DNA of 18,985 nucleotides from a virus (IMGVR_UViG_2734482774_000015); one strand, 5' to 3'. Positions 1 through 16,300 are shown, counted from the first letter of the stretch. The notes: generated by a model not told the origin, from the letters alone. Program-made: numbers and translations.

Positions 1-513
1 GGAAGATGCTGACTGAGCCGACGACGCGGCCTGTCCGGCTGACGTGCTGGCTGCGCGTGCTGAGCCTGCAGCATCAGTCGCATGGGTTGCCGCCTCACGT
101 GCTGATGTGCCGGCATCGCTGGCTGACTTCTTCGCGGCTGCCGTGTTCTGTGCCACCGCGGACGCGTTACGCGCCACCTCTTCCACCATCAGTTCAAAAC
201 GGCGCAGTGCCTCAGGACGGGCATCATCCTCCGTCATGGCACCGAGAAAATCATTCAGCGTACCGGGTCGGGAATCTTCATACACGGTGATGGTCCCGGC
301 ATGTGACGGCGGGAATCCCTCCACCAACAGAATAACGCTGTACTGCCCGTACTCAACGTCCATGCTGTAACGCCCGGCTTCATCCGGATTTTCTGAGGCC
401 AGCGTGTTCACCACCACCGTGGTGCTGTTACGTTTTGCTTTCAGCTGGATTGTGCAGTTCTGTACCGGTTTTCCTGTGCCGTCTTTCAGTACACCTGAAA
501 TCTTTACTGCCAT
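1..513 (-). CDS. stf: Side tail fibre protein Stf, N-terminal 171 codons (partial; runs off window start)
   Basis: Minus-strand translation from the ATG at 513 reads MAVKISGVLKDGTGKPVQNCTIQLKA...NTLASENPDEAGRYSMDVEYGQYSV..., recognised as λ Stf (orf-401) N-terminus. No stop before the window edge, so it is absent from the ORF track. Confidence 0.85.
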   Translation of the reverse strand, partial: MAVKISGVLKDGTGKPVQNCTIQLKAKRNSTTVVVNTLASENPDEAGRYSMDVEYGQYSVILLVEGFPPSHAGTITVYEDSRPGTLNDFLGAMTEDDARPEALRRFELMVEEVARNASAVAQNTAAAKKSASDAGTSAREAATHATDAAGSARAASTSAGQAASSAQSASS

Positions 514-524
514 ATTCACCCCAC

Positions 525-552
525 AAAAAAGCCCGCCTGAACCGGCGGGCTG
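525..552 (-). terminator. Rho-independent terminator immediately upstream of stf
   Basis: Minus strand reads AGCCCGCCGG-TTCA-GGCGGGCT followed by TTTTTTGTGG: a GC-rich stem-loop plus U-run. Confidence 0.6.
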
Positions 553-573
553 TCATAACACTGTGTTACCTGG

Positions 574-753
574 CTACCAGCCGTCGCTCAGTTTCTGACG
601 AAACGCCGGGAGCTGTGTGGCCAGTGCCCGGATGGCTTCAGCCCCCGTTTTCACACGAAGGTCGATGCGGCGACCAAATCGTTGTAAATCCCCGTAAAGG
701 CAGATGCGCGCCATGCCCGGTGACGCCAGAGGGAGTGTGTGCGTCGCTGCCAT
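574..753 (-). pseudogene. I: Tail assembly protein I remnant: 59 codons, then in-frame TAG
   Basis: Minus-strand ATG at 753 gives MAATHTLPLASPGMARICLYGDLQRFGRRIDLRVKTGAEAIRALATQLPAFRQKLSDGW*, which matches the λ gpI N-terminus as recalled. The full protein is about 223 aa. The stop is followed directly by the pre-stf terminator. Confidence 0.8.
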
Positions 754-1427
754 TTGTCGGTGTACCTCTCTCGTTTGCTCAGTTGTTCAGGAATATGGTG
801 CAGCAGCTCGCCGTCGCCGCAGTAAATTGCGGCGTGATTCGGCACTGATGAACCAAAACAGCACAGCAGCACATCGCCCGGCTGTGCCGCTGACAACGGC
901 ACCTGATACAGCCCCGTCGCCTCCAGATTGCGTTTCACCCACGAAGCATGGCCGCCATTGTCACCAAGAAAATCCCCGCCCTGCGACATAGCGATGGAAA
1001 GAGCAGGTATTGATTCGTAGTACGCCAGCATTTCAGAAAGGATCGCATCCAGTTTCCTTATCGGAAAATAGGCCTGGTCATAGTTGCGATCCACCCGAAA
1101 CTGGAACTCGTGATAATCATCATCGAGCTGAATGAAGTATTTACACCCGACCAGTTTTGCCAGGTCGAAACAGGCATTACGGGCGTAAAAAATTGAGCGG
1201 CGGTCACAGAAATTATCGGCTTCGTCAAAACGACTGGCGATATCGGCTTTGGAAAACACCAGCACCTGTTCACCAAATTCAGCCATGTACTGATGCCGTG
1301 TCTTATCTTCATCATCAACAACGATAAAAATTTTCCCGGTATAGCCAGCACGACGCAACGTCCGGTAAGTCAGAACTTTGTCCGGTCGCCCGTGAGTCAG
1401 AATAAAGGCGCAAAAATCATCACGCAT
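651..1427 (-). CDS. Chimeric ORF: N-terminal GT-A-like (DxD) domain fused in frame to the C-terminal NlpC/P60-like part of λ tail protein K; probable deletion fusion
   Basis: The C-terminal ~90 aa (LEATGLYQVPLSAAQPGDVLLCCFGSSVPNHAAIYCGDGELLHH...AFTGIYNDLVAASTFV) look like the gpK C-terminus and overlap the I start as K does in λ. The N-terminal ~170 aa (FILTHGRPDK...GKIFIVVDDEDKT...IQLDDDYHEF) resemble a family-2 glycosyltransferase pattern. The likely start is the ATG at 1427 (MRDDFCAF), with GAGGAGGAGG 4 nt upstream and an ATGCGTGA overlap with the upstream gene's stop. Confidence 0.55.
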   Translation of the reverse strand: MRDDFCAFILTHGRPDKVLTYRTLRRAGYTGKIFIVVDDEDKTRHQYMAEFGEQVLVFSKADIASRFDEADNFCDRRSIFYARNACFDLAKLVGCKYFIQLDDDYHEFQFRVDRNYDQAYFPIRKLDAILSEMLAYYESIPALSIAMSQGGDFLGDNGGHASWVKRNLEATGLYQVPLSAAQPGDVLLCCFGSSVPNHAAIYCGDGELLHHIPEQLSKRERYTDKWQRRTHSLWRHRAWRASAFTGIYNDLVAASTFV

Positions 1428-2211
1428 ATTCCTCCTCCTCACCACCATGCATGATCTCCACCATGCGCTGCGTCATCCGGACAAATCCATTTTCAATAGC
1501 CTGCTGATAATCAATGATCACCAGCGCCGACTCCTCGAAAAAACACTGAATTTCAGCGGGGGCGTGAGCGTAATAGTCCGCAATTCTGCTGAAATTAAAC
1601 ACCGTGTGACGTTCTGCCGCACACAGGAGGAATTTCTCAATATCAGGCTCAAGGGAAGCCAAACGTATCCGGCTGATCAGCTCCTGCGTTTTCGTATCGT
1701 CGTACAGTTCACTGATATCCGGTTTACCGCCCGACGGCTCATAAACAGGCGTATCAATTTTCGTCGTATACGGCTCCTCCTCATTTCCTGTACCGGGCAA
1801 AACATCCGTCAACAGTTCATCAATTTCTGTCGGGATGAAGCCTGTCAGGGAGACATCAAAATCAGCATTGATTAGGTCCGACAGCTCCATCCGCAACAGA
1901 TCTTCATCCCAGCCAGCATTCATCGGCAGGCGATTATCTGCCAGGCGGTACGCCTTTTTCTGCTCATCCGTCAGGCCAGACAGAACAATGACCGGAACAG
2001 AATCCATTTTGAGCATTTCAGCCGCCATAACACGACCGTGACCCGCAATAATTTCGCCCTTTTCGTCAATCAGCACCGGATTAGTCCAGCCGAATTGCTT
2101 AATACTTTCTACCAGTTGTGCCACCTGCTCAGGGCTGTGCGTCCTGGCGTTGTGCGCATACGGTGACAATTCTTGTAATGGGCGATAGACTATCTTTAAT
2201 TTCTCGCTCAT
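1420..2211 (-). CDS. ParB-like nuclease domain protein (263 aa)
   Basis: The N-terminus (YRPLQELSPYAHNARTHSPEQVAQLVESIKQFGWTNPVLIDEKGEIIAGHGRVMAAEML) has the ParB N-terminal domain pattern including a GxGR arginine motif. AAGGA lies 4 nt upstream of the ATG. It sits in the post-lysis cargo position. Confidence 0.7.
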   Translation of the reverse strand: MSEKLKIVYRPLQELSPYAHNARTHSPEQVAQLVESIKQFGWTNPVLIDEKGEIIAGHGRVMAAEMLKMDSVPVIVLSGLTDEQKKAYRLADNRLPMNAGWDEDLLRMELSDLINADFDVSLTGFIPTEIDELLTDVLPGTGNEEEPYTTKIDTPVYEPSGGKPDISELYDDTKTQELISRIRLASLEPDIEKFLLCAAERHTVFNFSRIADYYAHAPAEIQCFFEESALVIIDYQQAIENGFVRMTQRMVEIMHGGEEEEYA

Positions 2212-2348
2212 ACATCCTTGCTTTATGAATAAAACGCACCCCAGCAGCCAGTGCTACTGGGGGCGGAGGTGTTGCTGGTAAAGTTAGGTATTGGATCAAT
2301 GAGTGAGTCAACATAATATTAAACTCACAATTATAAATCAGCCATATA

Positions 2349-3806
2349 TTAGGAGCGCCAAAAAAAACCTGAAAACAAAATAATAACAGGATAAATTTCA
2401 AGGCGACCAAGAATCATAGCTATGCACATTAAATATTTTGCAATGTCATTAAGCACTCCGAATGACGATGCAGTAGCCCCAAAACCTAATCCCATATTAT
2501 TAATACATGCAGCCACTGTTGCAAATGATGTAAGAAAATCATATCCCATACCATTTAACACCAGTATAAAAAACACCGTGAAGAGAGTATAAAGAAAAAA
2601 GAAACTCCATACAGACCTCATTACACGATCTGTAACTATCTTCCCTCCTACATTTACACTCAACAACGCTCTGGGATGAGAAAGCTGATTTATCTCGTGT
2701 TTGCTTTGTTTGAAAAGTATAAGAAATCGAAGTGACTTAATTCCACCACAAGTTGAACCTATACATCCCCCAAAGAAACTTGACAACAGCAAAAACACTA
2801 TCGTGTGCGTGGGCCAGCTTGCATAATCCTGCATAGCTAAACCATTATCAGTGAGCATGGAGCTGGCAAGAAAAAACGAATGAATAAAACTTCCATGCAA
2901 GTCATACATACCTATATGCCAGACCTGGAAAGAGGTAACAATGATCACCCCTAAGGCTATTAACAGAAAGAAACGAAGTTCAATATCTCTGATTAAAGGT
3001 TTTATCGTTTTCCTGCTAATAACAATATACCAAAGAGTGAAGTTGAAAGCCGATAGCAGGGAAAAAGAACCAGCCACCAGCTCAACCAAATAGTTATTAA
3101 AATATCCGATACTCTCGCTATGAGTTGAGAAACCACCAAGCGAAACTGTGGAAATCCCGTGACAAATAGCATCAAACAAAGGCATTCCTGCAAGTCTATA
3201 ACAGACAATACAAGCAATACCTAATAAAGAATAAGTTATCCACAGTGTCCGTGACGTATCGGCCAGGCGGGGAGTGAGTTTGTCATCCTTAAATGGCCCC
3301 GGCATTTCTGACTGATAAAGCTTTGCACCACCAATACCCAATAATGGCAATACAGCAACCGCCAGAACAATAACTCCTAAACCACCTATAAAATTTAACT
3401 GTGACCGATAGTACAAATATGCCCGAGGTAATGAACTAACATCATCAATTACAGTTGCTCCTGTTGTTGTTATTCCAGAAACCCCTTCAAACAGAGCATC
3501 AATGAACGTTAAATTAAGTTCTGAGTCAATCCATAAAGGGAATGCACTAATAACAGAAAACAAAATCCAAAACATTACAATTATAATAAACCCATCACGG
3601 GTACGTAATTGAATGCCAGATTTCTTAGTTGTATACCACGCTCCGCCACCAATGCAAAAAAATATAACGAAAGTTATAAAGAAAACGAACAGGCTTTTTT
3701 CTTTATAAAACAATGCTACAACCATTGGTGGCAACATTGAAAGACTATAGAGCCAAACCAGGAACCCACACATATGAGTAACAACTCTTACATGAGATGT
3801 ATTCAT
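2349..3806 (-). CDS. trkG: TrkH/TrkG-family K+ uptake transporter (485 aa)
   Basis: Multi-pass hydrophobic protein with repeated pore-like GxGG segments, recognised as E. coli TrkG (Rac prophage cargo). The region is visibly AT-rich compared with flanking phage genes. The track ORF starts 18 nt upstream at a TTG; the ATG giving MNTSHVRV is preferred. Confidence 0.88.
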   Translation of the reverse strand: MNTSHVRVVTHMCGFLVWLYSLSMLPPMVVALFYKEKSLFVFFITFVIFFCIGGGAWYTTKKSGIQLRTRDGFIIIVMFWILFSVISAFPLWIDSELNLTFIDALFEGVSGITTTGATVIDDVSSLPRAYLYYRSQLNFIGGLGVIVLAVAVLPLLGIGGAKLYQSEMPGPFKDDKLTPRLADTSRTLWITYSLLGIACIVCYRLAGMPLFDAICHGISTVSLGGFSTHSESIGYFNNYLVELVAGSFSLLSAFNFTLWYIVISRKTIKPLIRDIELRFFLLIALGVIIVTSFQVWHIGMYDLHGSFIHSFFLASSMLTDNGLAMQDYASWPTHTIVFLLLSSFFGGCIGSTCGGIKSLRFLILFKQSKHEINQLSHPRALLSVNVGGKIVTDRVMRSVWSFFFLYTLFTVFFILVLNGMGYDFLTSFATVAACINNMGLGFGATASSFGVLNDIAKYLMCIAMILGRLEIYPVIILFSGFFWRS

Positions 3807-3943
3807 ATCTAAATATTCTTTCAATTATAACCACCTTGCTGCAATATTATGATTATACTGTATAAAATTTAACTCCTCTTAGATCTTACTTCACTGTTCC
3901 TTATGAAACAATCATCAAAATGAATCATATTGTAGTTAAGATT

Positions 3944-4408
3944 TTACTTTAAACACTGTTCGGTTATGTATTGCTGAGCACCTTCAAGTTGGGCCTGCAT
4001 CATTACCAGTCGTTCCCGGAGGGTGAAATAATCCCGTTCAGCGGTGTCTGCCAGTCGGGGGGAGGCTGCATTATCCACGCCGGAGGCGGTGGTGGCTTCA
4101 CGCACTGACTGACAGACTGCTTTGATGTGCAACCGACGACGACCAGCGGCAACATCATCACGCAGAGCATCATTTTCAGCTTTCGCATCAGCTAACTCCT
4201 TCGTGTATTTTGCATCGAGCGCAGCAACATCACGCTGACGCATCTGCATGTCAGTAATTGCCGCGTTCGCCAGCTTCAGTTCTCTGGCATTTTTGTCGCG
4301 CTGGGCTTTGTAGGTAATGGCGTTATCACGGTAATGATTAACAGCCCATGACAGGCAGACGATGATGCAGATAACCAGAGCGGAGATAATCGCGGTTACT
4401 CTGTTCAT
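3944..4408 (-). CDS. rzpD: Rz-type i-spanin (154 aa)
   Basis: N-terminal TM segment ([20 protein letters not shown]) followed by a coiled-coil-like charged region. Its start overlaps the endolysin stop (ATGA). Matches DLP12 RzpD as recalled. Confidence 0.85.
4003..4188 (-). CDS. rzoD: Rz1-type o-spanin lipoprotein, embedded in the +1 frame of Rz (61 aa)
   Basis: Lipobox LVVVGC followed by a proline-rich segment ([15 protein letters not shown]), entirely inside the Rz gene. Confidence 0.85.
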
Positions 4409-4902
4409 TGCTGACCCCACAAACAGATTTCACGCTCAATCTCACGACGAGTCATGAGACCTTTCCATTGCTTACCGCCAGCATATGTCCAGCGACGTAG
4501 CTGATCACATGCGCCTTTGATATCGCCCTGGTTTATTTTGCGAAGAAGCGTCGATGTTCTGAAATTGCCAGCACCCACGTTGTAAACGAATGAGTAAAGA
4601 GCGCCGCGCATTGTTTCCGGTATATCGACTTTGATGTACGGGTTAATTTGTCTGGCGACCGTGGCAAGGTCTTTATTCAGGAGGGCTTTGCATTCTGCTT
4701 TGGTATACGTTTTACCGGGAATGATGTCTTTTCCTGTATGCCCGTGACATACAGTCCATACACCAACAATATCTTTGTATGGTATGTAGCTGACACCTTC
4801 CAGACCATCGTTACCACTTGGGCCAGTAATTAACACTGATGCTATAGCAATTGCTCCGCCACCAATAGCAGCAGCAACGGCTTTTCGTAATGATGGAGGC
4901 AT
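4405..4902 (-). CDS. rrrD: SAR endolysin, T4-lysozyme family (165 aa)
   Basis: N-terminal Gly/Ala-rich weakly hydrophobic signal-anchor-release segment ([20 protein letters not shown]) followed by a lysozyme-like body. Matches DLP12 RrrD / phage 21 R as recalled. Confidence 0.9.
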
Positions 4903-5117
4903 TATTCACCTCTCGCAGCCTTGCGCTTATCTTCTTTAATCTTGAAATAAAGGTTTGTCAGGTACGTCAGCAGGCCAAATACCAGGCTACCCAGCACACC
5001 TATTGCTGCCCACTGTGAGGGCGTGACTTTATCGAGCAGCTGTAAAAACCAGTAACCGGCACTACCTGCTGAGGTGCCATAGGCGACACCCGTTGTTAAC
5101 TTATCCATGGATTTCAT
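4902..5117 (-). CDS. essD: Class II pinholin of the S21 family with dual-start motif (71/68 aa)
   Basis: Starts MKSMDK, i.e. two in-frame starts separated by a Lys codon. Two TM segments and a charged C-terminus ([13 protein letters not shown]). Stop overlaps the endolysin start. Confidence 0.85.
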
Positions 5118-5704
5118 AACCCCACCTCGCAGACAAAGCGGGTGTAAATTGAGGGAATACAACGTATCGCAAAAAAGCAGAAACGTAACAGACTCGGAGT
5201 CAGTGAATAACTCAGGTATTGGGTTATCAGCTAATATCGAGACTCAAAAAATGGAAAAACCTGCTCGACGGCGGGTTTAAGCTGTGTGACGAAGTAACCA
5301 CTCTTAACAGCATAACCAATTTTTTACGTACGTAAACCACTAAATGATATTTGCGAGAATGCTACCGAGTATTGAAAACACCACTACAAATACATAAGCA
5401 AATCTCAACAAATAACCAACAAATAATTTCCAGCGTTATTTTTAGCTGGTTTAAATTGAACCTTCAAATTATAGAGCACTTATAAATAACAGCCATTAAT
5501 ATAAATTGGCTAATAGATTTATTTTTATTCAGCCAAGAGCCATGAATAGGATTCGATAGAAAAAGTTCAGATAAAAATAGAGATCTACTTCACAAATCAA
5601 ATGAGAAACCAAAACTTACATCTTGAAATAATCACATTGATTAGATGAATATTTATCGCGCAGTGACATCATTTTTTAATAATAGTTCAAAAAAAGGGCT
5701 CACG

Positions 5705-6787
5705 ATGAAAAAATTAACAGTGGCAATTTCTGCTGTAGCTGCATCAGTACTGATGGCGATGTCTGCTCAGGCAGCTGAAATTTATAATAAAGACAGTAAC
5801 AAGCTGGATCTGTACGGGAAAGTTAATGCTAAGCACTACTTCTCCTCTAATGATGCAGATGATGGTGATACTACTTATGCCCGTCTTGGCTTCAAAGGTG
5901 AAACCCAAATCAACGATCAACTGACTGGTTTCGGTCAGTGGGAATATGAATTCAAAGGCAACCGCGCTGAATCTCAAGGTTCCTCCAAAGATAAAACCCG
6001 TCTTGCCTTCGCTGGCCTGAAATTCGGTGACTACGGCTCCATCGATTATGGCCGTAACTACGGTGTAGCATACGATATTGGTGCATGGACCGACGTTCTG
6101 CCAGAATTCGGTGGCGATACCTGGACCCAAACAGATGTATTCATGACTGGTCGCACCACAGGTGTTGCAACTTATCGTAACAATGACTTCTTTGGTCTGG
6201 TTGATGGTCTGAACTTTGCTGCTCAGTATCAGGGTAAAAATGACCGCACTGACGTAACTGAAGCTAATGGTGATGGTTTCGGTTTCTCCACTACTTATGA
6301 GTATGAAGGATTCGGTGTAGGTGCAACCTATGCTAAATCTGACCGCACTAATAATCAGGTTATCTACGGTAACAACAGCCTGAATGCATCTGGTCAAAAT
6401 GCTGAAGTATGGGCAGCTGGTCTGAAATATGATGCGAACAACATCTATCTGGCTACCACCTATTCTGAAACCCAGAACATGACTGTTTTTGGTAATAACC
6501 ATATTGCCAACAAAGCACAAAACTTCGAAGTAGTTGCACAATATCAGTTCGACTTCGGTCTGCGTCCGTCCGTTGCTTACCTGCAATCTAAAGGAAAAGA
6601 CTTGGGTGCGTGGGGTGATCAGGACCTGGTTGAATATATTGATGTAGGTGCAACCTATTACTTCAACAAAAATATGTCCACTTTTGTTGATTACAAAATC
6701 AACCTGATTGATAAGAGCGATTTCACGAAAGCATCTGGCGTTGCTACCGATGATATCGTTGCTGTAGGTATGGTTTACCAGTTCTAA
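5705..6787 (+). CDS. nmpC: Outer-membrane general porin, OmpC/OmpF/NmpC family (360 aa incl. signal peptide)
   Basis: Signal peptide [23 protein letters not shown], Tyr/Gly-rich beta-barrel repeats and C-terminal ...VYQF. It is convergent with Q and antisense to the late operon, as in DLP12. The track ORF starts 60 nt upstream; the ATG at 5705 is preferred. Confidence 0.85.
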
Positions 6788-6802
6788 TTTGATTACTAAA
6801 AG

Positions 6803-6838
6803 ATATGTTGCGGGAGGCTTTGCCTCCCCAACATATAA
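6803..6838 (-). terminator. Long imperfect hairpin, candidate tR'-like terminator of the short Q-dependent late leader
   Basis: ATATGTTGCGGGAGGC-TTT-GCCTCCCCAACATAT dyad, followed on the minus strand by CTTTTAG. A second small hairpin GTGGCT..AGCCAC lies adjacent (about 6841..6858). Confidence 0.35.
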
Positions 6839-6916
6839 GTGGCTCCCTCAAGCCACTTCCTTTAGGAGCACAACCTTGCTTCTAACTATATAAACCTTCT
6901 GTTATATATTACCCTT

Positions 6917-6948
6917 TATTTTTGGGGGCGTCTCAACGCCCCATTTTT
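6917..6948 (+). terminator. Rho-independent terminator downstream of nmpC
   Basis: GGGGGCG-TCTCAA-CGCCCC stem-loop followed by ATTTTTAATAATTTTT on the + strand. Confidence 0.55.
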
Positions 6949-6975
6949 AATAATTTTTAGTAAACAATTGGCATA

Positions 6976-7359
6976 TTAATTAGAGTTATTAACAACGATA
7001 TCCATCTCTAACCGGATATCTAATGCCATTAACATCCCTTCAATTATGCCCTCAGCCTTCTGTAACCTTTTCCCGATATAACCATCAGAGCAGCAATGCT
7101 TACCTGCCAGTGACATGAATGTCATACCGACTACATAATAATCTACTAATAAATCGTGCAAATCGCTGTTGTTCTTTTTCAGACGGGCCATGCACCCGCA
7201 AATAATCATCGCGTCATCGTCACAACATTGCGGGCGAGATTTTACTTTTGAAGTAATTAATCCCTTAAAACCGGCGGCAATGGACGACCAGGTCACATCT
7301 TCATGATTATTAGCCGCCCACGCTCCCCAACGCTCAAGAACCATCTGAATATCACGCAT
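6976..7359 (-). CDS. quuD: Late-gene antiterminator Q (127 aa)
   Basis: [22 protein letters not shown]... with Cys-rich putative zinc-binding region ([16 protein letters not shown]). Lies between the nin region and the lysis genes. The track ORF starts 5 codons upstream at a TTG. Confidence 0.85.
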
Positions 7360-7444
7360 CAACTTACTCCACAAAAATCAGACCAGAACGCCAATTACAA
7401 GCAAAAATCAACGAAACAGTATTAGTTGATTGTTATCTCTGACT

Positions 7445-7585
7445 TCATACTCCTGCTCCTGTCAGGGTTTTGGCGTAATTCTTCAGTATTCGGTAATCGG
7501 TCAAAACAGAACCGGGGAAACGATATAAGCGCAGACGCCCCCAGCGGTGGCGAAGACGTTCTGCCATATAAAACTCAAACATCAT
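7445..7585 (-). CDS. ylcG: Small nin-region protein YlcG (46 aa)
   Basis: Below the ORF-track size cutoff. Minus-strand translation: [46 protein letters not shown]. Start overlaps the rusA stop (ATGA). Confidence 0.8.
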
Positions 7586-7944
7586 TCATTCCCCATTTCG
7601 GTGATGGTCAGTTCCAGCCTCCCACCTTTGGTAACAGGCATCTTCACAACGCGGTAATCAACGACCTGAGCATCATCCAGCCAGAAACCTGCTTTAGTGA
7701 GTGCGTCAAAAGCGGCTTTTTGCAGATTATCCAGGTCACGGCGACGGCGATCCGGCATGTGGCACTCAATGCGGATTTTCACAGGCATAGCCAAGCCGAT
7801 ATCCAGCATTGCGTTTTTAATGATTCGGGCGACGTTATCGCGGTATGCCTGCCCCTCTGCGCTGACGTGCGTGCGCCCGCGATTATGGCGGTAATAGCGA
7901 TTATTGCTCGGAGGCCAGGGTAATGTGATGCTGTAGGTATTCAC
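7582..7944 (-). CDS. rusA: Holliday junction resolvase RusA (120 aa)
   Basis: Full-length match to E. coli RusA as recalled ([37 protein letters not shown]...). Confidence 0.95.
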
Positions 7945-8231
7945 GCCTTAATAACCCCCTCTTTCAGCCAGATAACCTGTGTTCTCGCCATACCTTCCAG
8001 CGCGCATTCTTTTGCATATGCAGCATCGACAAAATGTGTGCGGCGGTCGATTTCGTCGTGGCAGGCAGAACATGCAATGGTGGCAATCAGGTCTGGCGGT
8101 TTGGTACCGGTGCCGCACAATCCAGTCAGCCGGATATGTGCCAGTACAGACGTTTCAGGGTTACCATTACATACGCCAGGGATTCTTACCTGGCATTCCC
8201 GACTACGCGCTGCTTTTCTCAAATCAGCCAT
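7941..8231 (-). CDS. ybcO: Nin-region putative nuclease YbcO (96 aa)
   Basis: [37 protein letters not shown]... with multiple Cys. Start overlaps the ninE stop (ATGGCTGA). The track ORF is extended upstream. Confidence 0.85.
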
Positions 8232-8394
8232 GATTCCTCCTTGCTGCCAGTCGCAACCATTTTTTATCAACCAGGCTGGCGGTATATCCGAGCAGTGTTG
8301 GTATTTCGGAAGGTTTCAGCTCCGGTTTACGCTTACGACGATTTGGTACTCTGTAGATGTGTCCGTTCATGACACGAATAAGCGGTGTAGCCAT
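8224..8394 (-). CDS. ninE: NinE (56 aa)
   Basis: Below the track cutoff. Minus-strand translation: [56 protein letters not shown]. Start overlaps the ybcN stop. Confidence 0.85.
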   Translation of the reverse strand: MATPLIRVMNGHIYRVPNRRKRKPELKPSEIPTLLGYTASLVDKKWLRLAARRNHG

Positions 8395-8849
8395 TACGCC
8401 TCCTGCTTGTCACGGAGCTGCTGGAACTCGCAGCTCTGCGGAATAGTCAGATGGCAGCCAATATTCACCGCCCAGGCTTCAACCTTACACAGGAAGACAT
8501 ACATCTCTCCGGTATCAAGATCGGAGGTATGGCGTAACGACTGGATAGTGGTGATATCACCGGTTACGACATCAACCAGGTCTTTGGTTTCATAACCGAG
8601 ATATGTGTGTTTGAGAGCATCTTTTACCCAAGCTGGAGTGGCGAACGTTTTACCCCTGCTGATGAGGTATTCACTGATTTCGCTGTACCACATGTGGCTG
8701 AGTGCATTCTGGGAAAGACTGCGTTTCTCACGCCACGGTTTAAGCACCATGCGAAAGCATTTGCCCTCCTCCAGATAAGGCTGGATCTGCCGACCGATAG
8801 CGGTGAAGTTACCGCGATGTAATTTTATGCCGTCTTGTGGGAGGTTCAC
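8394..8849 (-). CDS. ybcN: NinB-position protein YbcN (151 aa), GTG start
   Basis: [57 protein letters not shown]..., recognised as DLP12 YbcN. Confidence 0.85.
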
Positions 8850-9096
8850 GCTTCACCTCCGCAGAGGCCAAACGCTGGATGCAAAAAATCGCAGGTGCAT
8901 TTCTGCATCTGTGAATGGAGAAGATAGGTTGGTTTGTATGTGCGCATAACCCCAAATCTTCATACGTTACGGTATCAAGGTAATAATCACTATTTACCTT
9001 TAGCCATTCAGTAATAAGCCTTCTCTGGCGGTTTAATGAATCACCAGACATCTGACCTGGTGATGAAAATCGCATATATGCTATGGCTTTTTTCAT
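8809..9096 (-). pseudogene. ybcK: Serine recombinase (YbcK-like) N-terminal remnant: about 49 homologous codons, then unrelated sequence
   Basis: [49 protein letters not shown] carries the resolvase catalytic Ser/Arg motif. The remaining ~46 codons are not recombinase-like and overlap the ybcN start. A full serine recombinase would be several hundred aa. Confidence 0.7.
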
Positions 9097-9351
9097 GGTG
9101 ACACCTGCTAAAGTATGCTTTTATAAACCTTAGTGGTGAGATATGATTTTTGTTTAATTTTTATTTAAAAAGACAATTAAGGTCACATTATCTTGAATAT
9201 ACAACAATAATCGTATTGCAATTTTCTTACACCATAATCCTGAAAGCACAAAAGAATGAATAAAAACTAAAGACATTAACAAAAAGCATAAAACGAGGCC
9301 CATATAAATATACGAACCTCCATATTTTAGTCGTTTAAAAACAAATTATTT

Positions 9352-9684
9352 TTAATGTGGTGTGCTTCGTGACAATAAATTAATAACCAACACACCGGCA
9401 CAAATCAACATCATGCCTATAATGGCTGGCAGGTCCAACCGTTGGCCGAAAAATCCCCATGATAGTAAGCTAATCAGGACAATACCGACTCCTGACCAGA
9501 TAGCATAAGCAATCCCTGTAGGAATATAAGCCAGCGTCTGAGCTAATAACCAGAATGATGCACAATAACAAATAATTGTACCAACAGATGGCCATAACCG
9601 TGTAAAACCTTCTGAAAACTTCATTAAGGTTGTACCAATGACCTCTGCAAGTATTGCACCACCAAGATAAATATAAGGATTCAT
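9352..9684 (-). CDS. emrE: Small multidrug resistance efflux transporter EmrE (110 aa)
   Basis: MNPYIYLGGAILAEVIGTTLMKFSEGFTRLWPSVGTI... with four TM helices and the conserved membrane-embedded Glu. The track ORF is extended 18 codons upstream. AT-rich flanks. Confidence 0.95.
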   Translation of the reverse strand: MNPYIYLGGAILAEVIGTTLMKFSEGFTRLWPSVGTIICYCASFWLLAQTLAYIPTGIAYAIWSGVGIVLISLLSWGFFGQRLDLPAIIGMMLICAGVLVINLLSRSTPH

Positions 9685-9751
9685 AGCATATTCTTTCCTG
9701 TTCAAACTGGAGAGAATTGTACTACAGTTTGAACTCAACTCACCTGTTTCA

Positions 9752-10054
9752 TCATTGTGTACCCATTGATGTTCTTTTATATACCCTCAATACCCGTTTC
9801 ATCGCGGCACTCTGGCGACACTCCTTAAAAATCAAATTCGTGCTCACCTTTCCTTCCCATTCTTCTCTGGTAGCGAACCGATAATACACCGTTCGCCAGA
9901 CCTTACCATCAACGACCAGGATTCCTGCCCGCGCCATTTTAGCCGCAGCCTGATTTATGCTGGTTACCGTTGCGCCTGTTACCGCGGCAACGTCCTGCGC
10001 ACAGAATTTCTTATGAGTCCCCAGGTAATGAATAATTGCCTCTTTGCCCGTCAT
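9752..10054 (-). CDS. ren: Ren exclusion protein (100 aa)
   Basis: MTGKEAIIHYLGTHKKFCAQDVAAVTGATVTSINQAAAKMARAGILVVDGKVWRTVYYRFATREE..., recognised as λ Ren. Immediately downstream of P. Confidence 0.9.
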   Translation of the reverse strand: MTGKEAIIHYLGTHKKFCAQDVAAVTGATVTSINQAAAKMARAGILVVDGKVWRTVYYRFATREEWEGKVSTNLIFKECRQSAAMKRVLRVYKRTSMGTQ

Positions 10055-10752
10055 ACCCTTGCTCCTTTCAGCCCAAACTTAGCTTTGATTTCTGCGATCT
10101 TCGCCAGAGCCTGTGCACGATTTAGAGGTCTACCGCCCATGACAGGAAGTTGTTTTACTGGTTCAGGTATAGCCTCACCACGGTTAATTCGCGCGGTCAT
10201 ACAGGCCAGTTCATCGGCAGCCTTGCGCCGTAATTCCGCGTCAGTCAACGCATTGGCCCGCATGTTCTGGTACAGGTTGGTAACCAACCAGTAGTGCGCG
10301 TTTGATTTCCATGGATAAGACTCTGCGTCCGGATACAGGCCACGCTTCCGGCAATACTCGTAAACCATATCAACCAGCTCGCTGGCGTTTGGCAGCCCGG
10401 CTGTAACGGATGTTTCTTCCCGGCACCAGGCAACAAACTGCCCGGGTGATGGCAGGAATGGTCGATTCTGCCGACGGGCTACGCGCATTCCTGCGTTAAC
10501 CTGTTCCATTGTGGTGATCCCGTTTTCCCGGAAAGCCAGCACCCACTGGCGGCGGATTTCGTTCAGTTCGTTCTGGTCCCGGTTAGCCAGGCTCGCCGGG
10601 AAAGTTGCCAGTAACTGGCTGAACACACCATTGATGATCTGCGCTACCAGCTGTACCTGCGGCTTTTCGTCGTACTGTTCCGGCATGTTATTGGCGATCC
10701 GACGCATCTGCTCACGGTCAAAGTTAACCATCTGTGCGGCGATGTTTTTCAT
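10051..10752 (-). CDS. P: Replication protein P, DnaB helicase loader (233 aa)
   Basis: MKNIAAQMVNFDREQMRRIANNMPEQYDEKPQV...AKIAEIKAKFGLKGARV, recognised as near-identical to λ P. Confidence 0.95.
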   Translation of the reverse strand: MKNIAAQMVNFDREQMRRIANNMPEQYDEKPQVQLVAQIINGVFSQLLATFPASLANRDQNELNEIRRQWVLAFRENGITTMEQVNAGMRVARRQNRPFLPSPGQFVAWCREETSVTAGLPNASELVDMVYEYCRKRGLYPDAESYPWKSNAHYWLVTNLYQNMRANALTDAELRRKAADELACMTARINRGEAIPEPVKQLPVMGGRPLNRAQALAKIAEIKAKFGLKGARV

Positions 10753-11678
10753 AAATCCACCCCATAAATCCAGTCAGTGTTTGTCAGGTCGAGTTTTGAT
10801 TTTCCGGCTGTCACGCCAGCCTGTTGCTTGTTACGGTTGATTTCGAGTTGGGTCCACTTGTCGCGGAGTTTGGCCGGACATAGCACGTTACCGGACCAGA
10901 AGTTGTCCTGGCATGCCCAGCGGAACAGCACGCACATGTCGCGGTGGTTACGTCCGTCACGTTCACGCATCAGGCGGATATCGTTAGCCCACCCTGCAAA
11001 ATTCGGTTTTCTGGCTGATGGCGCGATGGTCTTCACCATGTCAAACATCCACTCTGCGGCGGTCAGGTCTTCTGCTGTCCCCCACTTGCTGCCGCTCTGA
11101 ATTGCAGCATCCGGTTTCACCACAGGAAGATCGTTTTCTGGCTGGTCAGAGGATTCGTCAGAATTCTCGGACGAAAAAGGTTTTATATTGTCTTTTGTTA
11201 GTTTGTCTTTTGTGTTTACCTGATTCGGGTAAACGCCTTTACCTGATTTGGGTAAACTTTTCTTACCTGATTCAGGTAAATTTACCTCTTTCAGGTAAAC
11301 TTTATTTTTCTTACCTGATTCGGGTAATGTTGACCATTCACTGACCACATTATTAATGCCGGTATTCCGCCCGCTCTGAATAAGAATCCCACGCTTTACC
11401 AGAACACTTTTTGCAGCAGAACACTTGTGCGGCAATATCCCGGTCAATTCGGACAGTTGCTCGTTGCTCACCCAATCCAGTTTTTTATTAAAGCCATATG
11501 TTTTGCGCATGACAGCTAGGAAGACCAGAAGCTGGTGCTGTGTTAATCCGGCCAGCATCACAGCTTCCAGCAACTCATTTGCAATGCGCGTATAACCATC
11601 ATCGAGATCTGCCACGCGCGGCTCCTTTTGTGCCGCATCCGGCACTGGAAAATTGAATATCTCAGCAGTGTTTGCCAT
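10749..11678 (-). CDS. O: Replication initiator O-like protein (about 309 aa); origin iterons lie inside the gene
   Basis: N-terminal domain ADLDDGYTRIANELLEAVMLAGLTQHQLLVFLAVMRKTYGFNKKLD... resembles the λ O DNA-binding domain. The repeated LPESGKK peptides reflect the iterons. ATG at 11678 is preceded by GGGAGG. The track ORF starts 30 codons upstream at 11768, which remains an alternative start. Confidence 0.85.
   Translation of the reverse strand: MANTAEIFNFPVPDAAQKEPRVADLDDGYTRIANELLEAVMLAGLTQHQLLVFLAVMRKTYGFNKKLDWVSNEQLSELTGILPHKCSAAKSVLVKRGILIQSGRNTGINNVVSEWSTLPESGKKNKVYLKEVNLPESGKKSLPKSGKGVYPNQVNTKDKLTKDNIKPFSSENSDESSDQPENDLPVVKPDAAIQSGSKWGTAEDLTAAEWMFDMVKTIAPSARKPNFAGWANDIRLMRERDGRNHRDMCVLFRWACQDNFWSGNVLCPAKLRDKWTQLEINRNKQQAGVTAGKSKLDLTNTDWIYGVDL
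11215..11328. repeat. Replication origin: five about 19-bp iterons (consensus TTACCTGATTCGGGTAAAC, each an inverted repeat TTACC..GGTAA) next to an AT-rich tract (about 11175..11214)
   Basis: Direct repeats at about 11215-11234, 11238-11257, 11263-11280, 11281-11300 and 11311-11328, inside the O-like coding sequence, with the AT-rich stretch AAAAAGGTTTTATATTGTCTTTTGTTAGTTTGTCTTTTGTGTTT alongside, as in oriλ. Confidence 0.8.
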
Positions 11679-11764
11679 AATTCCTCCCGCAATGAGTGTG
11701 TTACGATTTGCACCTGAAAGTCGGTTCTGTTCCAGCAGACCGGCTTTCGCCATTTCTGAACCTG

Positions 11765-12304
11765 TCATATCGCCCCCAGCATGGTAGTAACCATCGCCAT
11801 CAATGGACCAGCCAGATCTGGGTCCACACGAAACATCGACACAATACCTTCACTAATTTCCTTCAGTTTCTGGTGGCGTGGTGCGTTGAGAATGACAGCC
11901 TGTTTTGCCTCACTGAGTTCCTTTTCCATTTCAGCCAACCTAGCCATGAAGCTATCCTGCTCAACCAGGTAACCGCGATATTCCAGCGGTAGTACCGCCA
12001 GAATTGCCGGGGTCAGTTCACGCACGTTATTTCGGTATTTTTCAGAATCGAATTTGTTATCGAGGAAGCGGAACAGCTTCTGGCGTGCACGGCTGACATC
12101 ATCAGGGAAATCGATGGTGCCGCCGCCCTGCTCCCGATACTCATTCACAATGAGTGTGGCAACGACATCCTGATTATCTTCAGCCGACCAAGCGCGGACG
12201 GCATCACGGATTTTTTCGTGGCCTGGCACCTGTTTTGTTTGAGAACGATTTATCACCGCAGTCGGGCTAAATCCGCTAGTCTGTTGGTATGTAAGTGGTT
12301 GCAT
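11765..12304 (-). CDS. YdaT-like protein in the cII position (179 aa)
   Basis: ATG preceded by AAAGGAG. Located directly downstream of the cro-like gene. Weak recalled resemblance to the Rac YdaT family (IRDAVRAW..., ARQKLFRFLDNK...). Function not established here. Confidence 0.5.
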   Translation of the reverse strand: MQPLTYQQTSGFSPTAVINRSQTKQVPGHEKIRDAVRAWSAEDNQDVVATLIVNEYREQGGGTIDFPDDVSRARQKLFRFLDNKFDSEKYRNNVRELTPAILAVLPLEYRGYLVEQDSFMARLAEMEKELSEAKQAVILNAPRHQKLKEISEGIVSMFRVDPDLAGPLMAMVTTMLGAI

Positions 12305-12373
12305 AATTGACTCCTTTAGTTTGAATTGACTGTTAAGTTGATTGCTTATTGTTAAAGAGCGTGAAATGGAAAT

Positions 12374-12604
12374 TTAAGCTGCGTTCTTTTCGGTGTGTGG
12401 AAACAACTTCGGAAGATCCGGGCGAATCTGGTATGCCTTCACTACTCCACCAGTAGCCGTAACAATGCTGCCGACATGTTCAGGGGATACCTTTGCTTTG
12501 TTGTGAAGCCACTTATAGACGGCCTGCTGTGAAACTTCGCAAGCAGCGCCCAGTTTCTTTTGTGAACCAACGATATTGATCGCTGTTTTGATAGCTGGGT
12601 TCAT
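12374..12604 (-). CDS. cro: Cro-like HTH regulator, YdaS-like (76 aa)
   Basis: Divergent from cI across a 104-bp operator region. Putative HTH (QKKLGAACEVSQQAVYKWLHN). GGAGG lies 5 nt upstream of the ATG. Confidence 0.75.
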   Translation of the reverse strand: MNPAIKTAINIVGSQKKLGAACEVSQQAVYKWLHNKAKVSPEHVGSIVTATGGVVKAYQIRPDLPKLFPHTEKNAA

Positions 12605-12708
12605 AACAACCTCCGTGGTTAATTTGAATCAAGATTAAAACTATGGTTGTTTTTAGTCAACAACCATTTTCGTTTGATGGAATAAAACCTTGGTTGTACA
12701 TTTGGACT
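12605..12708. promoter_or_regulatory. oR-like divergent control region: pR for cro (minus strand, -35 TTGACT, -10 TAATCT) and a likely leaderless pRM-type start for cI
   Basis: Minus strand reads TTGTTGACTAAAAACAACCATAGTTTTAATCT, then GGAGG and the cro ATG. Dyad elements ATGGTTGT...ACAACCAT and TTAATTTGAATCAAGATTAA are present. The cI ATG at 12709 has no recognisable Shine-Dalgarno, as for λ cI. Confidence 0.65.
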
Positions 12709-13398
12709 ATGAAAACAACACTCTCAGAAAGACTTAAAGAAGCCAGATTAGCGCGAGGCCTTACACAAAAGGCGCTTGGGGATTTGGTCGGGGTTAGCCA
12801 AGCTGCTATTCAGAAAATCGAAACAGGGAAAGCTAATCAAACAACTAAAATCGTGGAGATCGCGAACGCTTTGGGTGTGCGCGCAGAATGGTTATCTTCT
12901 GGCGTTGGAAATATGTCAGACAGTACAGTGCAACCAATACAATCAACTGTCAGCCATTCCAAATACTTCAAGATTGACGTTCTTGATATAGAAGTCAGTG
13001 CTGGGCCGGGAGTCATCAACCGTGAGTTTGTAGAAGTTCTACGCTCGGTTGAGTACTCGTTTGACGATGCTCGTCACATGTTCGATGGTAGGAAGGCGGA
13101 AAATATCCGCATCATTAACGTGCGTGGTGACAGCATGTCAGGAACGATCGAACCAGGTGATCTGCTGTTCGTTGATATCACAGTTAAATCTTTCGACGGT
13201 GATGGTATCTATGCGTTTCTGTACGACGACACAGCCCATGTAAAGCGCCTGCAAATGATGAAGGATAAGCTGCTGGTCATCTCTGATAACAAAAGCTACT
13301 CACCGTGGGACCCGATCGAGAAAGACGAGATGAACCGGGTGTTCATCTTCGGTAAGGTTATTGGGAGCATGCCGCAGACATATAGGAAGCATGGTTAA
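12709..13398 (+). CDS. cI: CI-type prophage repressor with LexA-like S24 autopeptidase domain (229 aa)
   Basis: N-terminal HTH (LTQKALGDLVGVSQAAIQKIETGK), candidate Ala-Gly cleavage site (EVSAGPG), catalytic Ser in RGDSMSGTIEPGDLLFVD and Lys in HVKRL. The upstream ATG at 12643 would place coding sequence over the operators and is rejected. Confidence 0.9.
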   Translation: MKTTLSERLKEARLARGLTQKALGDLVGVSQAAIQKIETGKANQTTKIVEIANALGVRAEWLSSGVGNMSDSTVQPIQSTVSHSKYFKIDVLDIEVSAGPGVINREFVEVLRSVEYSFDDARHMFDGRKAENIRIINVRGDSMSGTIEPGDLLFVDITVKSFDGDGIYAFLYDDTAHVKRLQMMKDKLLVISDNKSYSPWDPIEKDEMNRVFIFGKVIGSMPQTYRKHG

Positions 13399-13520
13399 AG
13401 TGAGGCTAAAAAACAGTTACAGCAATAGGCCTGTTGTTTTTCTTTAAACACGCAGTGTTAAACCGCTCTTTGAGATGCGGAGTAATGAGATGGAAGACTT
13501 GAATCACATAAGGGTTAGTG

Positions 13521-14270
13521 ATGGAGTGCGTAGCGAGCAGCAATAGTGCAATACCTAATGTCGTTGAAGTAATACGTCGCATCAATGAAGGTTCCACTCA
13601 GCCATTTCTTTGCAAATGTGATGATGGGCAGTTGTATGTTTTGAAGTCAAAACCATCAATGCCCCCGAAAAATCTCTTAGCTGAGTTCATTTCGGCGTGT
13701 TTGGCTAATGATATCGGCCTTCCTTTACCTGACTTTAAAATCGTATTTGTGCCAGAGGAACTTATAGAGTACTCACCTGATCTGCAGCAACAAATTTGTA
13801 CAGGATATGCCTTTGCTTCATTGTTCATTGACGGTGCAATAGCGTTAACGTTTACGCAGTCAAGAAACGAAACGATCATCCCAGTCGAACAGCAAAAATT
13901 AATCTATGTTTTTGATAAATGGATATTAAATGCAGACAGAACGCTTACTGACAAAGGTGGAAACGTTAACATCATTTATGACATCAGTAACGATAAGTAT
14001 TATCTGATTGACCATAATCTCTCATTTGATCAGAATGCTGGACCTGAAGATTTTTCTGTGCACGTGTACGGCCCTGGTAACCGCAAATGGCAATATGATT
14101 TAGTGGATCGCGTAGAGTACCGCCAGAGGGTCGTTAACAGTTTACACAAGCTTCCTGCTATCCTTGACGAAATTCCAGAAGAGTGGATAGTAGATGAGGA
14201 GTTTTTACCTTTTGTCTGCACTACGCTAGACAAAGGTGATTGTGATGAATTTTGGAGCGCAATAGAATGA
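13521..14270 (+). CDS. Uncharacterised protein with HipA-like / kinase-like catalytic motifs (249 aa); first gene of the cassette occupying the rexA slot
   Basis: Intact ORF 120 bp downstream of cI on the same strand. Motifs FDKWILNADRTLTDKGGN and IIYDIS resemble the HipA_C catalytic and Mg-binding Asp loops. AAGGG lies 7 nt upstream of the ATG; an alternative GTG start lies at 13518. The family assignment is inference from motifs only. Confidence 0.65.
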   Translation: MECVASSNSAIPNVVEVIRRINEGSTQPFLCKCDDGQLYVLKSKPSMPPKNLLAEFISACLANDIGLPLPDFKIVFVPEELIEYSPDLQQQICTGYAFASLFIDGAIALTFTQSRNETIIPVEQQKLIYVFDKWILNADRTLTDKGGNVNIIYDISNDKYYLIDHNLSFDQNAGPEDFSVHVYGPGNRKWQYDLVDRVEYRQRVVNSLHKLPAILDEIPEEWIVDEEFLPFVCTTLDKGDCDEFWSAIE

Positions 14271-15094
14271 CAACTCCATGCCTATATAGCATCGTTCGCT
14301 ATGCGCCTTATGCGGAGACTGAAGAGTTCGCAAACATAGGCGTACTTCTGTGCGCGCCAAAAGAAAATTACTTTGATTTCCAGCTCACAAAGCGAAATGA
14401 CTCTCGTGTAAAGAATTTTTTCCATGATGATTGTATTTTCCCTGTAGCAAAAGACTCAATACAAAGAGAACTACAGTTCGCAAAAATGCATGCGACCCAG
14501 ATTGTTGGACATCAACAACTTGCACAATTCTTCAGATATTTTACAAACAAAAAAGAATCAATTTTTCAGTTCAGTTCTACGAGAGTGATTCTCAGCGAAA
14601 ACCCAAAAGAAGAGCTGGCCCGCATTTACAATAAATATGTAAACCACTCTGACTACACAAAAGAGCGCCGTGAAGATGTTCTAGCCAGAGAGCTAAAACG
14701 AAGTATCGATAGAATAGATGGATTGAAGAACGTCTTCAAACAAGCAACCATTGATGGGTATTTCGCAAAGTTCTCAATGCCATTGGTCGCCAAGAAGCAT
14801 GACAGGATCCAATGTGCCATCAAACCTCTGGCATTCACTCAAGCTGAACCAGGAAAAATGATGGAGCATAGTGATACTTGGGTGATGAGAATAACTCGAG
14901 CAGCAGAAGAAAACCTGCTTTCACTTGATGACATTTTATTCACAATTGAAACTCCTGAATCACCAAACTCAGGCCAAAGCAAAGTTATTGACATCATAAA
15001 GAGAACTATGGATGCTAAGAAAATAAATCATATACCTGCATCCAACCACAAAGAAACTATTGATTTTGCAAAAAAAATACTTCCCCAAGTTTAA
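14267..15094 (+). CDS. Uncharacterised protein with DUF3037-like N-terminus (275 aa); second gene of the cassette, translationally coupled to the first
   Basis: The ATG overlaps the upstream stop (ATGA); GGAG lies 9 nt upstream. The N-terminus CLYSIVRYAPYAETEEFANIGVLLCAP matches my recollection of the DUF3037 signature. Followed by a strong terminator. Confidence 0.65.
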   Translation: MTTPCLYSIVRYAPYAETEEFANIGVLLCAPKENYFDFQLTKRNDSRVKNFFHDDCIFPVAKDSIQRELQFAKMHATQIVGHQQLAQFFRYFTNKKESIFQFSSTRVILSENPKEELARIYNKYVNHSDYTKERREDVLARELKRSIDRIDGLKNVFKQATIDGYFAKFSMPLVAKKHDRIQCAIKPLAFTQAEPGKMMEHSDTWVMRITRAAEENLLSLDDILFTIETPESPNSGQSKVIDIIKRTMDAKKINHIPASNHKETIDFAKKILPQV

Positions 15095-15128
15095 AATTTA
15101 TTTTTGTATGTGATATTCCTTATTAATA

Positions 15129-15156
15129 ACCCGGCCACCGTGCCGGGTTTTCTTTT
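15129..15156 (+). terminator. Rho-independent terminator ending the cI-downstream cassette
   Basis: ACCCGGC-CACCGT-GCCGGGT stem-loop followed by TTTTCTTTT on the + strand. Confidence 0.75.
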
Positions 15157-15288
15157 GCCTCCCCTCATCACACAAACCGCTCAAAAAACCACCATAACCT
15201 CGCTTCAGTTATCGCTATGCGATTCAAGTCACAAAATAAATCCATCCTAAATACAACCAGTTATATCTAAAACAACCAATAAAACAAC

Positions 15289-15326
15289 TTTTGTTGTTGA
15301 CGGTAAAACAACTATAGTTTTAAATA
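15289..15326 (+). promoter_or_regulatory. oL/pL-like promoter-operator, a near copy of the pR core
   Basis: TTGTTGACGGTAAAACAACTATAGTTTTAAATA here versus TTGTTGACTAAAAACAACCATAGTTTTAATCT at pR. Upstream operator-like repeats ACAACCAG, ACAACCAAT and the palindrome CAACTTTTGTTG lie at about 15252..15296. Confidence 0.6.
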
Positions 15327-15723
15327 GGTTCATCGCAACAACACAACGATACGGCAACCACCTGATTCACCGTTGCGATGACCGCTTAGATCCGCAGTTT
15401 GAATTTCAGCAGGCTTCGGGGAGTGCGAGGGGTGAAACGGACGCGTGAACGTCGGTGTGACCAGCTGAAATCAACTCAACATTTCATACCTTAGTCGCTT
15501 CAACGAGGCGGCTTAGTTATGACAACCGGCGGCCATCCACCGCCTGAATACGCGCAGAAGTCTCTATATGTTCAGCAGCCCAGCTTCACAGCGATGCCAG
15601 AGTCTGTAGTGTCAGATGATGACCGTACTCAAACATCGGGTTGAGTATTATCTTACTGTTTCTTTACATAAACATTGCTGATACCGTTTAGCTGAAACGA
15701 CATACATTGCAAGGAGTTTATAA

Positions 15724-16005: not shown

Positions 16006-16093
16006 ACCCAATATTACATAACAATCCTCGCACTCGCGGGGATTTATTTTATCTGAACTCGCTACGGCGGGTTTTGTTTTATGGAGATGATAA

Positions 16094-16278: not shown

Positions 16279-16300
16279 GTGTAATTGCGGAGACTTTGCG

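Follow-up and report, generated by a model that had tools for sequence, protein, structure and literature searches.

When a prophage carries a potassium transporter gene after its lysis cassette and ahead of its packaging genes, the question arises whether it was inserted there as an independent cassette or belongs to the phage module in which it sits. This question was addressed for trkG in the viral sequence IMGVR_UViG_2734482774_000015, one strand of which was analysed over a stretch of 18,985 nt (the window), with the interval 2212-3943 under study. A first-pass annotation had described the gene as an AT-rich moron placed directly behind Rz/Rz1, in a lambda-integrated element that combined Rac-type cargo with DLP12-type lysis genes. 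Morons are accessory gene units in the late regions of lambdoid phages, and the term is employed here as it was for HK97 and HK022. Here, we report that the window gene is very probably the canonical trkG of Rac-type lambdoid phages, which moves together with their late module, and that the hybrid element would have arisen by recombination in the lysis cassette.

The minus-strand ORF of the interval extends from 2349 to 3824 and its ATG at 3806 opens a frame of 485 codons with zero internal stops. Six nucleotide differences from K-12 trkG were found over 1458 nt, and these change two residues only, T325M and C458Y. In a Pfam profile search the product matched PF02386 (TrkH) over residues 40-483 with 479.9 bits against a cut-off of 27, and TIGR00933 was matched with 412.2 bits, above the cut-off of 331.15. 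The protein aligns nearly over its full length to the solved Vibrio TrkH structures 3PJZ and 4J9U (E = 2.5e-120). Pore-loop glycines G116, G224/G225, G322 and G439 are all present and occupy invariant columns in an alignment of 18 clade sequences, and the same holds for the D3M2b gate segment from F344 to R360 (FFGGC.GSTCGG.K..R). The protein thus passes the profile cut-offs of the TrkH/TrkG family and carries its four pore loops with filter glycines and the D3M2b gate loop. TrkH, encoded by a core gene of E. coli and structurally known from Vibrio parahaemolyticus (3PJZ, 4J9U), shares the family (PF02386/TIGR00933) and the four pore loops, and TrkG is its paralog. Against the TrkH equivalog NCBIfam NF008020 the window protein scored 448.7 bits, far under the cut-off of 866, as expected because the protein is the TrkG paralog; judged by these profiles, the gene appears to be this paralog and not an ortholog of TrkH. 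Orthology to TrkG is indicated by the near-identity to the K-12 protein together with the same flanking genes. Potassium uptake by TrkG is Na+-dependent, unlike that by TrkH (PMC9898762), and TrkA-dependent K+ uptake has been demonstrated for the K-12 TrkG (PMC9898762 and references therein), from which the window allele differs by 2 residues. No trkA is expected within the window. When the PADLOC defence models were scanned with TrkG, no match was obtained.

The base composition distinguishes trkG from its neighbourhood. Its GC3 is the lowest among the 24 genes scored in the window, with emrE in the next-lowest range at 0.333, and the GC3 difference between trkG and Rz plus ParB corresponded to a z of about 6.5 in a two-proportion calculation. 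The GC content of the interval 2212-3943 is 0.372; the lowest-GC stretch of the same length (1732 nt) anywhere in the window has 0.368 and starts at 2271, inside the studied interval, while the lowest non-overlapping stretch (GC 0.391) is found at 13601. A change point in cumulative GC falls at 2278. The contrast in composition that the first-pass annotation had proposed is therefore real (GC 0.380 in trkG versus 0.52 in Rz and 0.50 in ParB), the upstream region 3807..3943 is AT-rich as had been stated (GC 0.255), and the 485-aa frame carries no inactivating lesion. These observations support the view of trkG as cargo of foreign composition, with the lysis cassette on one side and the packaging genes on the other. 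Codon usage, scored for each gene against the pooled others as a scaled chi-square, was unremarkable for trkG (0.278); as it varies with the length of the gene and is taken against a heterogeneous pool, this statistic is uninformative, and GC and GC3 were relied on instead. Further AT-rich patches occur elsewhere in the window, upstream of the porin gene at 5250-5700 (GC 0.28-0.34), in the emrE region at 9000-9750, and at 13500-15500.

Table 1. Features of the trkG locus and its surroundings, with positions counted from the first nucleotide of the window.
Feature	Position	Strand	GC	GC3	Remarks
Whole window	1..18985		0.457		
Contiguous Rac-type block (start of S, R, Rz/Rz1, trkG, ParB, TAGT 5' part)	928..5133	-			99.07% over 4207 nt to ON470595.1
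Deletion-fusion ORF	651..1448	-			N-terminal TAGT glycosyltransferase domain; C-terminal NlpC/P60 as in tail protein K
ParB-N domain protein (ParB-like gene)	1420..2211	-	0.497	0.553	263 aa; full-length form of K-12 YnaK; PF02195; next late gene after trkG
Downstream spacer	2212..2348		0.409		
Terminator-like hairpin and short T-run	2229..2265	-			87 nt past trkG stop, 27 nt ahead of ParB start
AT-rich insert tail	2266..2348	-			Downstream of trkG stop
trkG CDS	2349..3806	-	0.380	0.325	485 aa, intact; K+-translocating subunit of Trk system; 483/485 residues match K-12 TrkG
AT-rich spacer, Rz to trkG (upstream spacer)	3807..3943	-	0.255		137 nt; presumed promoter and H-NS target region
Rz (i-spanin)	3944..4420	-	0.520	0.516	Full length; PF03245, 179.5 bits
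Rz1 (o-spanin lipoprotein)	4003..4188	-			Embedded in Rz; PF06085, 69.5 bits
Endolysin R (lysozyme, phage 21/RrrD type)	4405..4902	-			Intact ORF; PF00959
Holin S (P21 S/EssD type)	4902..5117	-			PF04971

The spacers adjoining the gene, the upstream one at 3807-3943 and the downstream one with its AT-rich tail at 2266-2348, are each 100% identical to K-12 Rac. A consensus scan of the upstream spacer revealed one weak -35/-10 match, at 3953..3924, in a match count that was not above that of shuffles. The trkG promoter is presumed to lie in this spacer on the basis of K-12 experiments on the identical sequence, where the trkG promoter shows up within Rac as a peak of constitutive RNA polymerase binding (PMC5811629). 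Also in K-12, H-NS and StpA reduce trkG expression without silencing it, and a reporter shows promoter activity (PMC9898762). Since the spacer is identical, the same regulation would apply to the window gene. Downstream of trkG, a hairpin stem was found by scan at 2262..2239, with a modest T-run after it; on folding, the RNA gives a strong hairpin at 2239-2265 whose 13-bp stem has -25.2 kcal/mol (z = -4.5), a stability reached by 0 of 200 shuffles. A hairpin with a T-run, of other sequence, also precedes ParB in the trkG-less STEC308 prophage when the alignment is read by eye, and the window hairpin may accordingly belong to the phage backbone.

The extent of the captured DNA can be estimated from relatives that do without the gene. 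The Rz genes of DLP12 and phage 21 are homologous to the window only as far as 4019, close to where Rz1 ends, and the remaining 76 nt still code for a homologous Rz C-terminus in a diverged allele. A trkG-less Rz-to-ParB junction was sought in the phage collection, where every record with this ParB at high identity carries trkG. The trkG-less comparator, the STEC308 prophage, was drawn from the E. coli genome collection; in it the same genes for ParB, TAGT and terminase come after an unlike lysis cassette. Its homology to the window starts only at 2265, and as its lysis cassette is of another type it defines only the right-hand boundary of the insert. By this comparison, the AT-rich material specific to trkG-bearing phages would comprise about 2266-3943, or 1.68 kb. 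The presence and absence of an accessory gene at one position, as expected of a moron, is thereby seen, in that trkG is absent in STEC308 and phages of the DLP12/phage 21 type carry bor or other sequence past 4019. The distinct composition of a moron is equally apparent when trkG (GC 0.380, GC3 0.325) is compared with its flanks (0.50-0.52 and 0.52-0.55, respectively).

The first-pass annotation was also correct in placing trkG directly behind Rz/Rz1, since both spanins are confirmed by Pfam and lie on the same strand as trkG. This adjacency is shared with Rac. In K-12 the Rac trkG (b1363, NP_415881.1) has the same neighbours, with Rz/Rz1 upstream and ynaK/ParB downstream, and a GC content of about 38% as in the window. 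The K-12 order is rzpR' (a pseudogene)/rzoR, trkG and ynaK', and over 1958-4388 the window shares about 99% identity with this region. Whereas rzpR' and ynaK' are truncated in K-12, the window Rz and ParB are full length: the K-12 rzpR is a 5'-truncated copy of this Rz, and ynaK retains just the first 254 nt of a ParB gene that in the window is 99.5% identical to full-length Rac. The complete Rac prophage ON470595.1 ('vB_EcoS-683R6'), located at ttcA, has the order Q, tRNAs, S, R, Rz, trkG, ParB, TAGT-family gene and terminase; it retains terminase, head and tail genes as well as the integrase and immunity region of Rac. It differs from the window in having another Q region with tRNA genes upstream of S and in lacking the porin. 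As the order Rz, trkG, ParB occurs both in K-12 Rac and in full-length Rac, the Rz/trkG adjacency is native to Rac. In the window, the final 76 nt of Rz (3944-4019) match Rac only and represent the Rac-type allele.

The lysis genes themselves are of mixed descent. R is 98.4% identical to full-length Rac versus 96.0% to DLP12, and Rz over 4020-4420 is 98.8% identical to full-length Rac versus 96.3% to DLP12, while S is 98.6% identical to DLP12 versus 94.4% to full-length Rac. S alone is thus closest to DLP12 and the cassette as a whole is not of DLP12 type. Beyond the cassette, the window is 95-98% identical to K-12 DLP12 over 6746-10362 (nin region, Q and emrE) and 89-95% in the porin region. 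By mismatch counts per 100 nt, the switch from DLP12 to Rac falls within the lysis cassette, around 4800-5000, and this cassette is common to all three phage types at an identity of at least 94%. A lambda-type xis/int at 16301-17567 adjoins ybhC, which is the lambda attB, and the bio operon is on the other side in the closest genome; the lambda-integrated nature of the element had thus been rightly recognized. K-12 Rac, on the other hand, is located at ttcA with IntR. The ttcA/IntR location and the RecET/RacR early region of a Rac prophage are absent from the window, and the early genes of K-12 Rac found no match in it. The Rac-type parts of the window are only the late block 928-5133 and an stfR/lomR fragment at 1-576. 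These identities point to a recombinant of Rac, DLP12 and lambda with a crossover inside the shared lysis cassette, and we infer the direction and order of recombination from the identity patterns only. What had been described as Rac-type cargo joined to DLP12-type lysis genes therefore holds for the 5' part of S, the porin, Q and the nin region, which are of DLP12 type, but not for R and Rz, which are closer to Rac and to which trkG is natively adjacent.

Nor is the combination newly made, as K-12 Rac and ON470595.1 already have Rz-trkG-ParB and the hybrid is known from ETEC H10407. The H10407 hybrid prophage (NC_017633.1, about 862-903 kb) occupies the same site, with int adjoining ybhC at the lambda attB. 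Its gene order quuD, porin, essD, rrrD, rzpD, trkG and ParB is that of the window, to which it is about 97% identical over 928-8000. It is full length (terminase through J), has a lambda-like early/immunity region (cII, cro, cIII, bet, exo), and its TrkG does not differ from the K-12 protein. The late region of K-12 DLP12 (quuD, nmpC, essD, rrrD, rzpD/rzoD, borD) is 98% identical to the window in the nin region and Q; after Rz it carries borD on the opposite strand whereas the window carries trkG, and both have their moron slot after Rz. The window prophage appears to be a decayed relative of the full-length H10407-type hybrid phage. Its sequence at 928-1419 is 99.8% identical to the post-ParB gene of full-length Rac, and 567-890 matches, at 94% identity, the tail K/I region that lies about 16 kb further along. 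In the ORF at 651-1448, 5' sequence of the TAGT gene is thus fused to 3' sequence of tail gene K, with the loss of ~16 kb of packaging, head and tail genes. The late region of the hybrid (at least 80% of window 1-8000) is present in about 30 of 5426 complete E. coli genomes, and trkG in 1551 of the 5426, nearly always at an identity of at least 99% and in single copy. Among the Rac genes, trkG is one of the best conserved across strains (PMC5700373).

Homologs of TrkG with 61-79% identity are distributed across the Enterobacterales (among them E. fergusonii, Citrobacter, Pectobacterium, Pantoea, Enterobacter, Buttiauxella, Serratia and Xenorhabdus). Three contexts were examined, those of 70-79% homologs in E. 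fergusonii, Pectobacterium and Enterobacter, and all are ordinary stretches of chromosome in which phage genes are absent. The homologs have a GC content of 0.42-0.43 in E. fergusonii and Pectobacterium, and of 0.57 in Enterobacter, which equals that of the host. The non-phage loci and the host-like GC of the Enterobacter copy indicate that the family is cellular in origin and that a phage acquired the E. coli copy from an AT-richer lineage. A search for the donor among the contexts of the closest homologs found none with a GC content as low as 38%. The low GC content of trkG (38% versus 53% for trkH), its location in rac, its foreign origin and its Na+-dependent K+ uptake have been described previously (PMC9898762).

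The history of the element may thus be pictured as follows. In the late region of a Rac-type phage, a foreign, AT-rich gene of the Trk family very probably became fixed behind the spanin genes and ahead of the ParB-like gene, and has since travelled along with that late module. The module may then have been joined to a DLP12-like segment with Q, porin and holin and to a lambda-like integrase, presumably by homologous recombination within the lysis cassette that these phages have in common at an identity of at least 94%. The outcome would be a hybrid phage at the lambda attB, of which the window copy has probably decayed with the loss of terminase, head and most tail genes. Extrapolating from the K-12 experiments, TrkG would act as the membrane pore subunit which, together with the host TrkA, mediates Na+-stimulated K+ uptake. 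Transcription in the lysogen would start from the gene's own promoter in the AT-rich spacer and be partly repressed by H-NS, as in K-12, and in an intact phage the Q-antiterminated late transcription would also read through trkG.

The main alternative for the origin of the arrangement is that trkG is an autonomous cassette which entered a lambda-like prophage on its own and came to lie behind lysis genes of the DLP12 type. The DLP12-type S, porin, Q and nin genes and the compositionally sharp edges of the AT-rich block would agree with such an event. Direct or inverted repeats flanking the block were, however, found only as short AT-rich chance matches, and a transposon-like insertion was rejected in the absence of meaningful flanking repeats. 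Moreover, identity of the Rac type reaches well past the AT-rich block in either direction, amounting to 99.1% across a 4.2-kb segment that takes in R, Rz, ParB and 5' sequence of TAGT. The two junctions, Rz/trkG and trkG/ParB, match K-12 Rac at 100% identity, and trkG is always beside the same flanking genes among the lambdoid places examined. The insertion of trkG behind a DLP12 cassette was rejected because the Rac-type block 928-5133 is contiguous and the crossover is inside the lysis cassette, and we regard an autonomous cassette as extremely improbable. A different question is why the gene has been kept. It may have been retained chiefly for the lytic cycle of the phage, if late K+ content or membrane potential tunes holin timing or burst size, with a benefit to the lysogen being secondary. 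The gene is on the same strand as the late operon, straight after the holin, endolysin and spanin genes, its position is conserved in full-length prophages that are maybe still viable, and a Q-modified polymerase would be expected to pass the hairpin after trkG. Nevertheless, the literature found gives no experimental support for such a role, trkG persists in prophages that are unable to lyse (K-12 Rac and the window), its own promoter is active in lysogens (PMC5811629, PMC9898762), and related phages do without it. A primarily lytic function is therefore considered highly improbable.

The sole unusual detail of the window trkG is T325M, which lies beside the third pore loop, near its filter. 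In the clade alignment Thr325 is kept in 15 of 18 sequences, with Met in none of the rest, while C458Y introduces Tyr, the residue held by most of the clade. Only 3-4 of 1544 records contain the 60-nt segment with the Met codon, and these are the closest relatives of the window (UTME-7, 6EVA and wlxctx60). In a structural model T325 contacts D327, and mutation of D327 raises the Na+ requirement and implicates this residue in Na+ activation (PMC9898762). Owing to this contact, the T325M/C458Y allele may be a gating variant. That either the allele is a natural variant with altered Na+-dependent gating, or trkG stays in the late operon because late K+ uptake aids the phage through lysis timing or burst size, is a speculation to which we give little credence; the T325M allele could nonetheless serve as a handy natural variant for the study of Na+ activation in TrkG. 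The same substitution could also be taken to mean that the window trkG is an intact-looking yet impaired remnant, subject to neutral drift in a dying prophage and with its gating damaged by T325M. Packaging, head and most tail genes are gone from the prophage, and T325M is rare and affects a clade-conserved residue adjoining the third pore-loop filter, with the reported contact to D327 (PMC9898762). Against this, the frame is full length with all remaining pore and gate motifs conserved, merely 6 nt in 1458 differ from K-12, and C458Y brings back the majority residue of the clade. In addition, about 1500 genomes keep the gene at an identity of at least 99%, even when Rac itself is strongly decayed (PMC5700373), which argues for host selection. 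An impaired gene is thus unlikely, and the window trkG is best regarded as the canonical gene of Rac-type phages.

The reading of trkG as phage cargo is right yet long known, as its low GC, foreign origin, promoter, partial H-NS repression and Na+-dependent uptake have all been published, and the Rac/DLP12/lambda hybrid is likewise already present in sequenced genomes, including that of a reference ETEC strain. The importance of the locus beyond its correct annotation is consequently slight, and trkG remains a textbook example of a foreign gene that is carried by a phage, moderated by H-NS and adopted by the host. What the comparison adds is a view of the module around it: the rzpR', trkG and ynaK' of K-12 are the remnant of an intact module comprising S, R, Rz/Rz1, trkG, ParB, the TAGT gene and terminase, and it is this module that appears to shift among lambdoid phages with different integrases by means of recombination in the lysis cassette.

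Two substitutions distinguish the TrkG allele of this prophage from that of K-12. T325M is rare (only 3-4 of 1544 E. coli records) and lies at a residue beside the third pore-loop filter; T325 is reported to contact D327, the residue implicated in Na+ activation (PMC9898762). C458Y is due to changes at two neighbouring nucleotides and brings back the residue present in most of the 18-sequence TrkG clade. In the search of the E. coli genome collection, 15 of the 1558 places matching trkG were on plasmid records, and these matches could represent phage-plasmids or misassigned replicons.

Substitutions in TrkG relative to K-12, and further features of the prophage
Feature	Position in window	Strand	Remarks
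TrkG T325M	2833		codon 325; allele compared with K-12
TrkG C458Y	2433-2434		codon 458; allele compared with K-12
Deletion-fusion ORF, TAGT + NlpC/P60	651-1448	-	domain matches; cf. 23476-24408 in the comparison locus L003
Intact nmpC/ompC-type porin gene	5163-6787	+	between Q and S, on the strand opposite to them
emrE, small multidrug-resistance transporter gene	9352-9738	-	in AT-rich patch 9000-9750
HipA_2-like kinase + DUF3037 protein	13518-15094	+	two overlapping ORFs; profile matches

The tail region is marked by loss. The N-terminal ~165 aa of the fusion ORF derive from a gene of the TET-associated glycosyltransferase (TAGT, PF20691) family, and its C-terminus is the NlpC/P60 part of tail protein K. 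The TAGT-family gene of full-length Rac-type phages is paired with that of a ParB-N protein just upstream of the small terminase, and the two may function in modifying or packaging DNA. Positions 1-576 are 97.7% identical to the K-12 Rac lomR'/stfR 5' region and abut the remnant of tail gene K almost directly, while the match to the closest genome, UTME-7, starts only at 567; the joining of these segments thus indicates that more tail genes have been deleted here than in UTME-7.

The immunity and replication region (10051-13398) is mosaic too: like Rac, it harbours YdaS-type (cro-like) and YdaT-type genes, its O and P replication genes are of the lambda type, and it also encodes an S24 repressor. 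This cI-like repressor (12643-13398, + strand) lies directly upstream of the HipA_2-like/DUF3037 pair, which thereby occupies the slot equivalent to that of rexAB in lambda. The kinase ORF matched PF20613 at 257 bits, and in PADLOC the two ORFs matched PDC-M66A/B, a candidate defence pair (E = 8e-15 and 4e-16). The segment has a GC content of about 0.39-0.41 and is absent from UTME-7.

Whereas the corresponding porin gene in the DLP12 prophage of K-12 is broken by IS5, the copy found here is intact and shares only 88.6% identity with K-12 nmpC; a strongly AT-rich stretch (GC 0.28-0.34) lies upstream of it. In the DLP12-type early-right region, emrE has a GC3 of 0.333, nearly down to the level of trkG, and is a second AT-rich transporter cargo of the same prophage.
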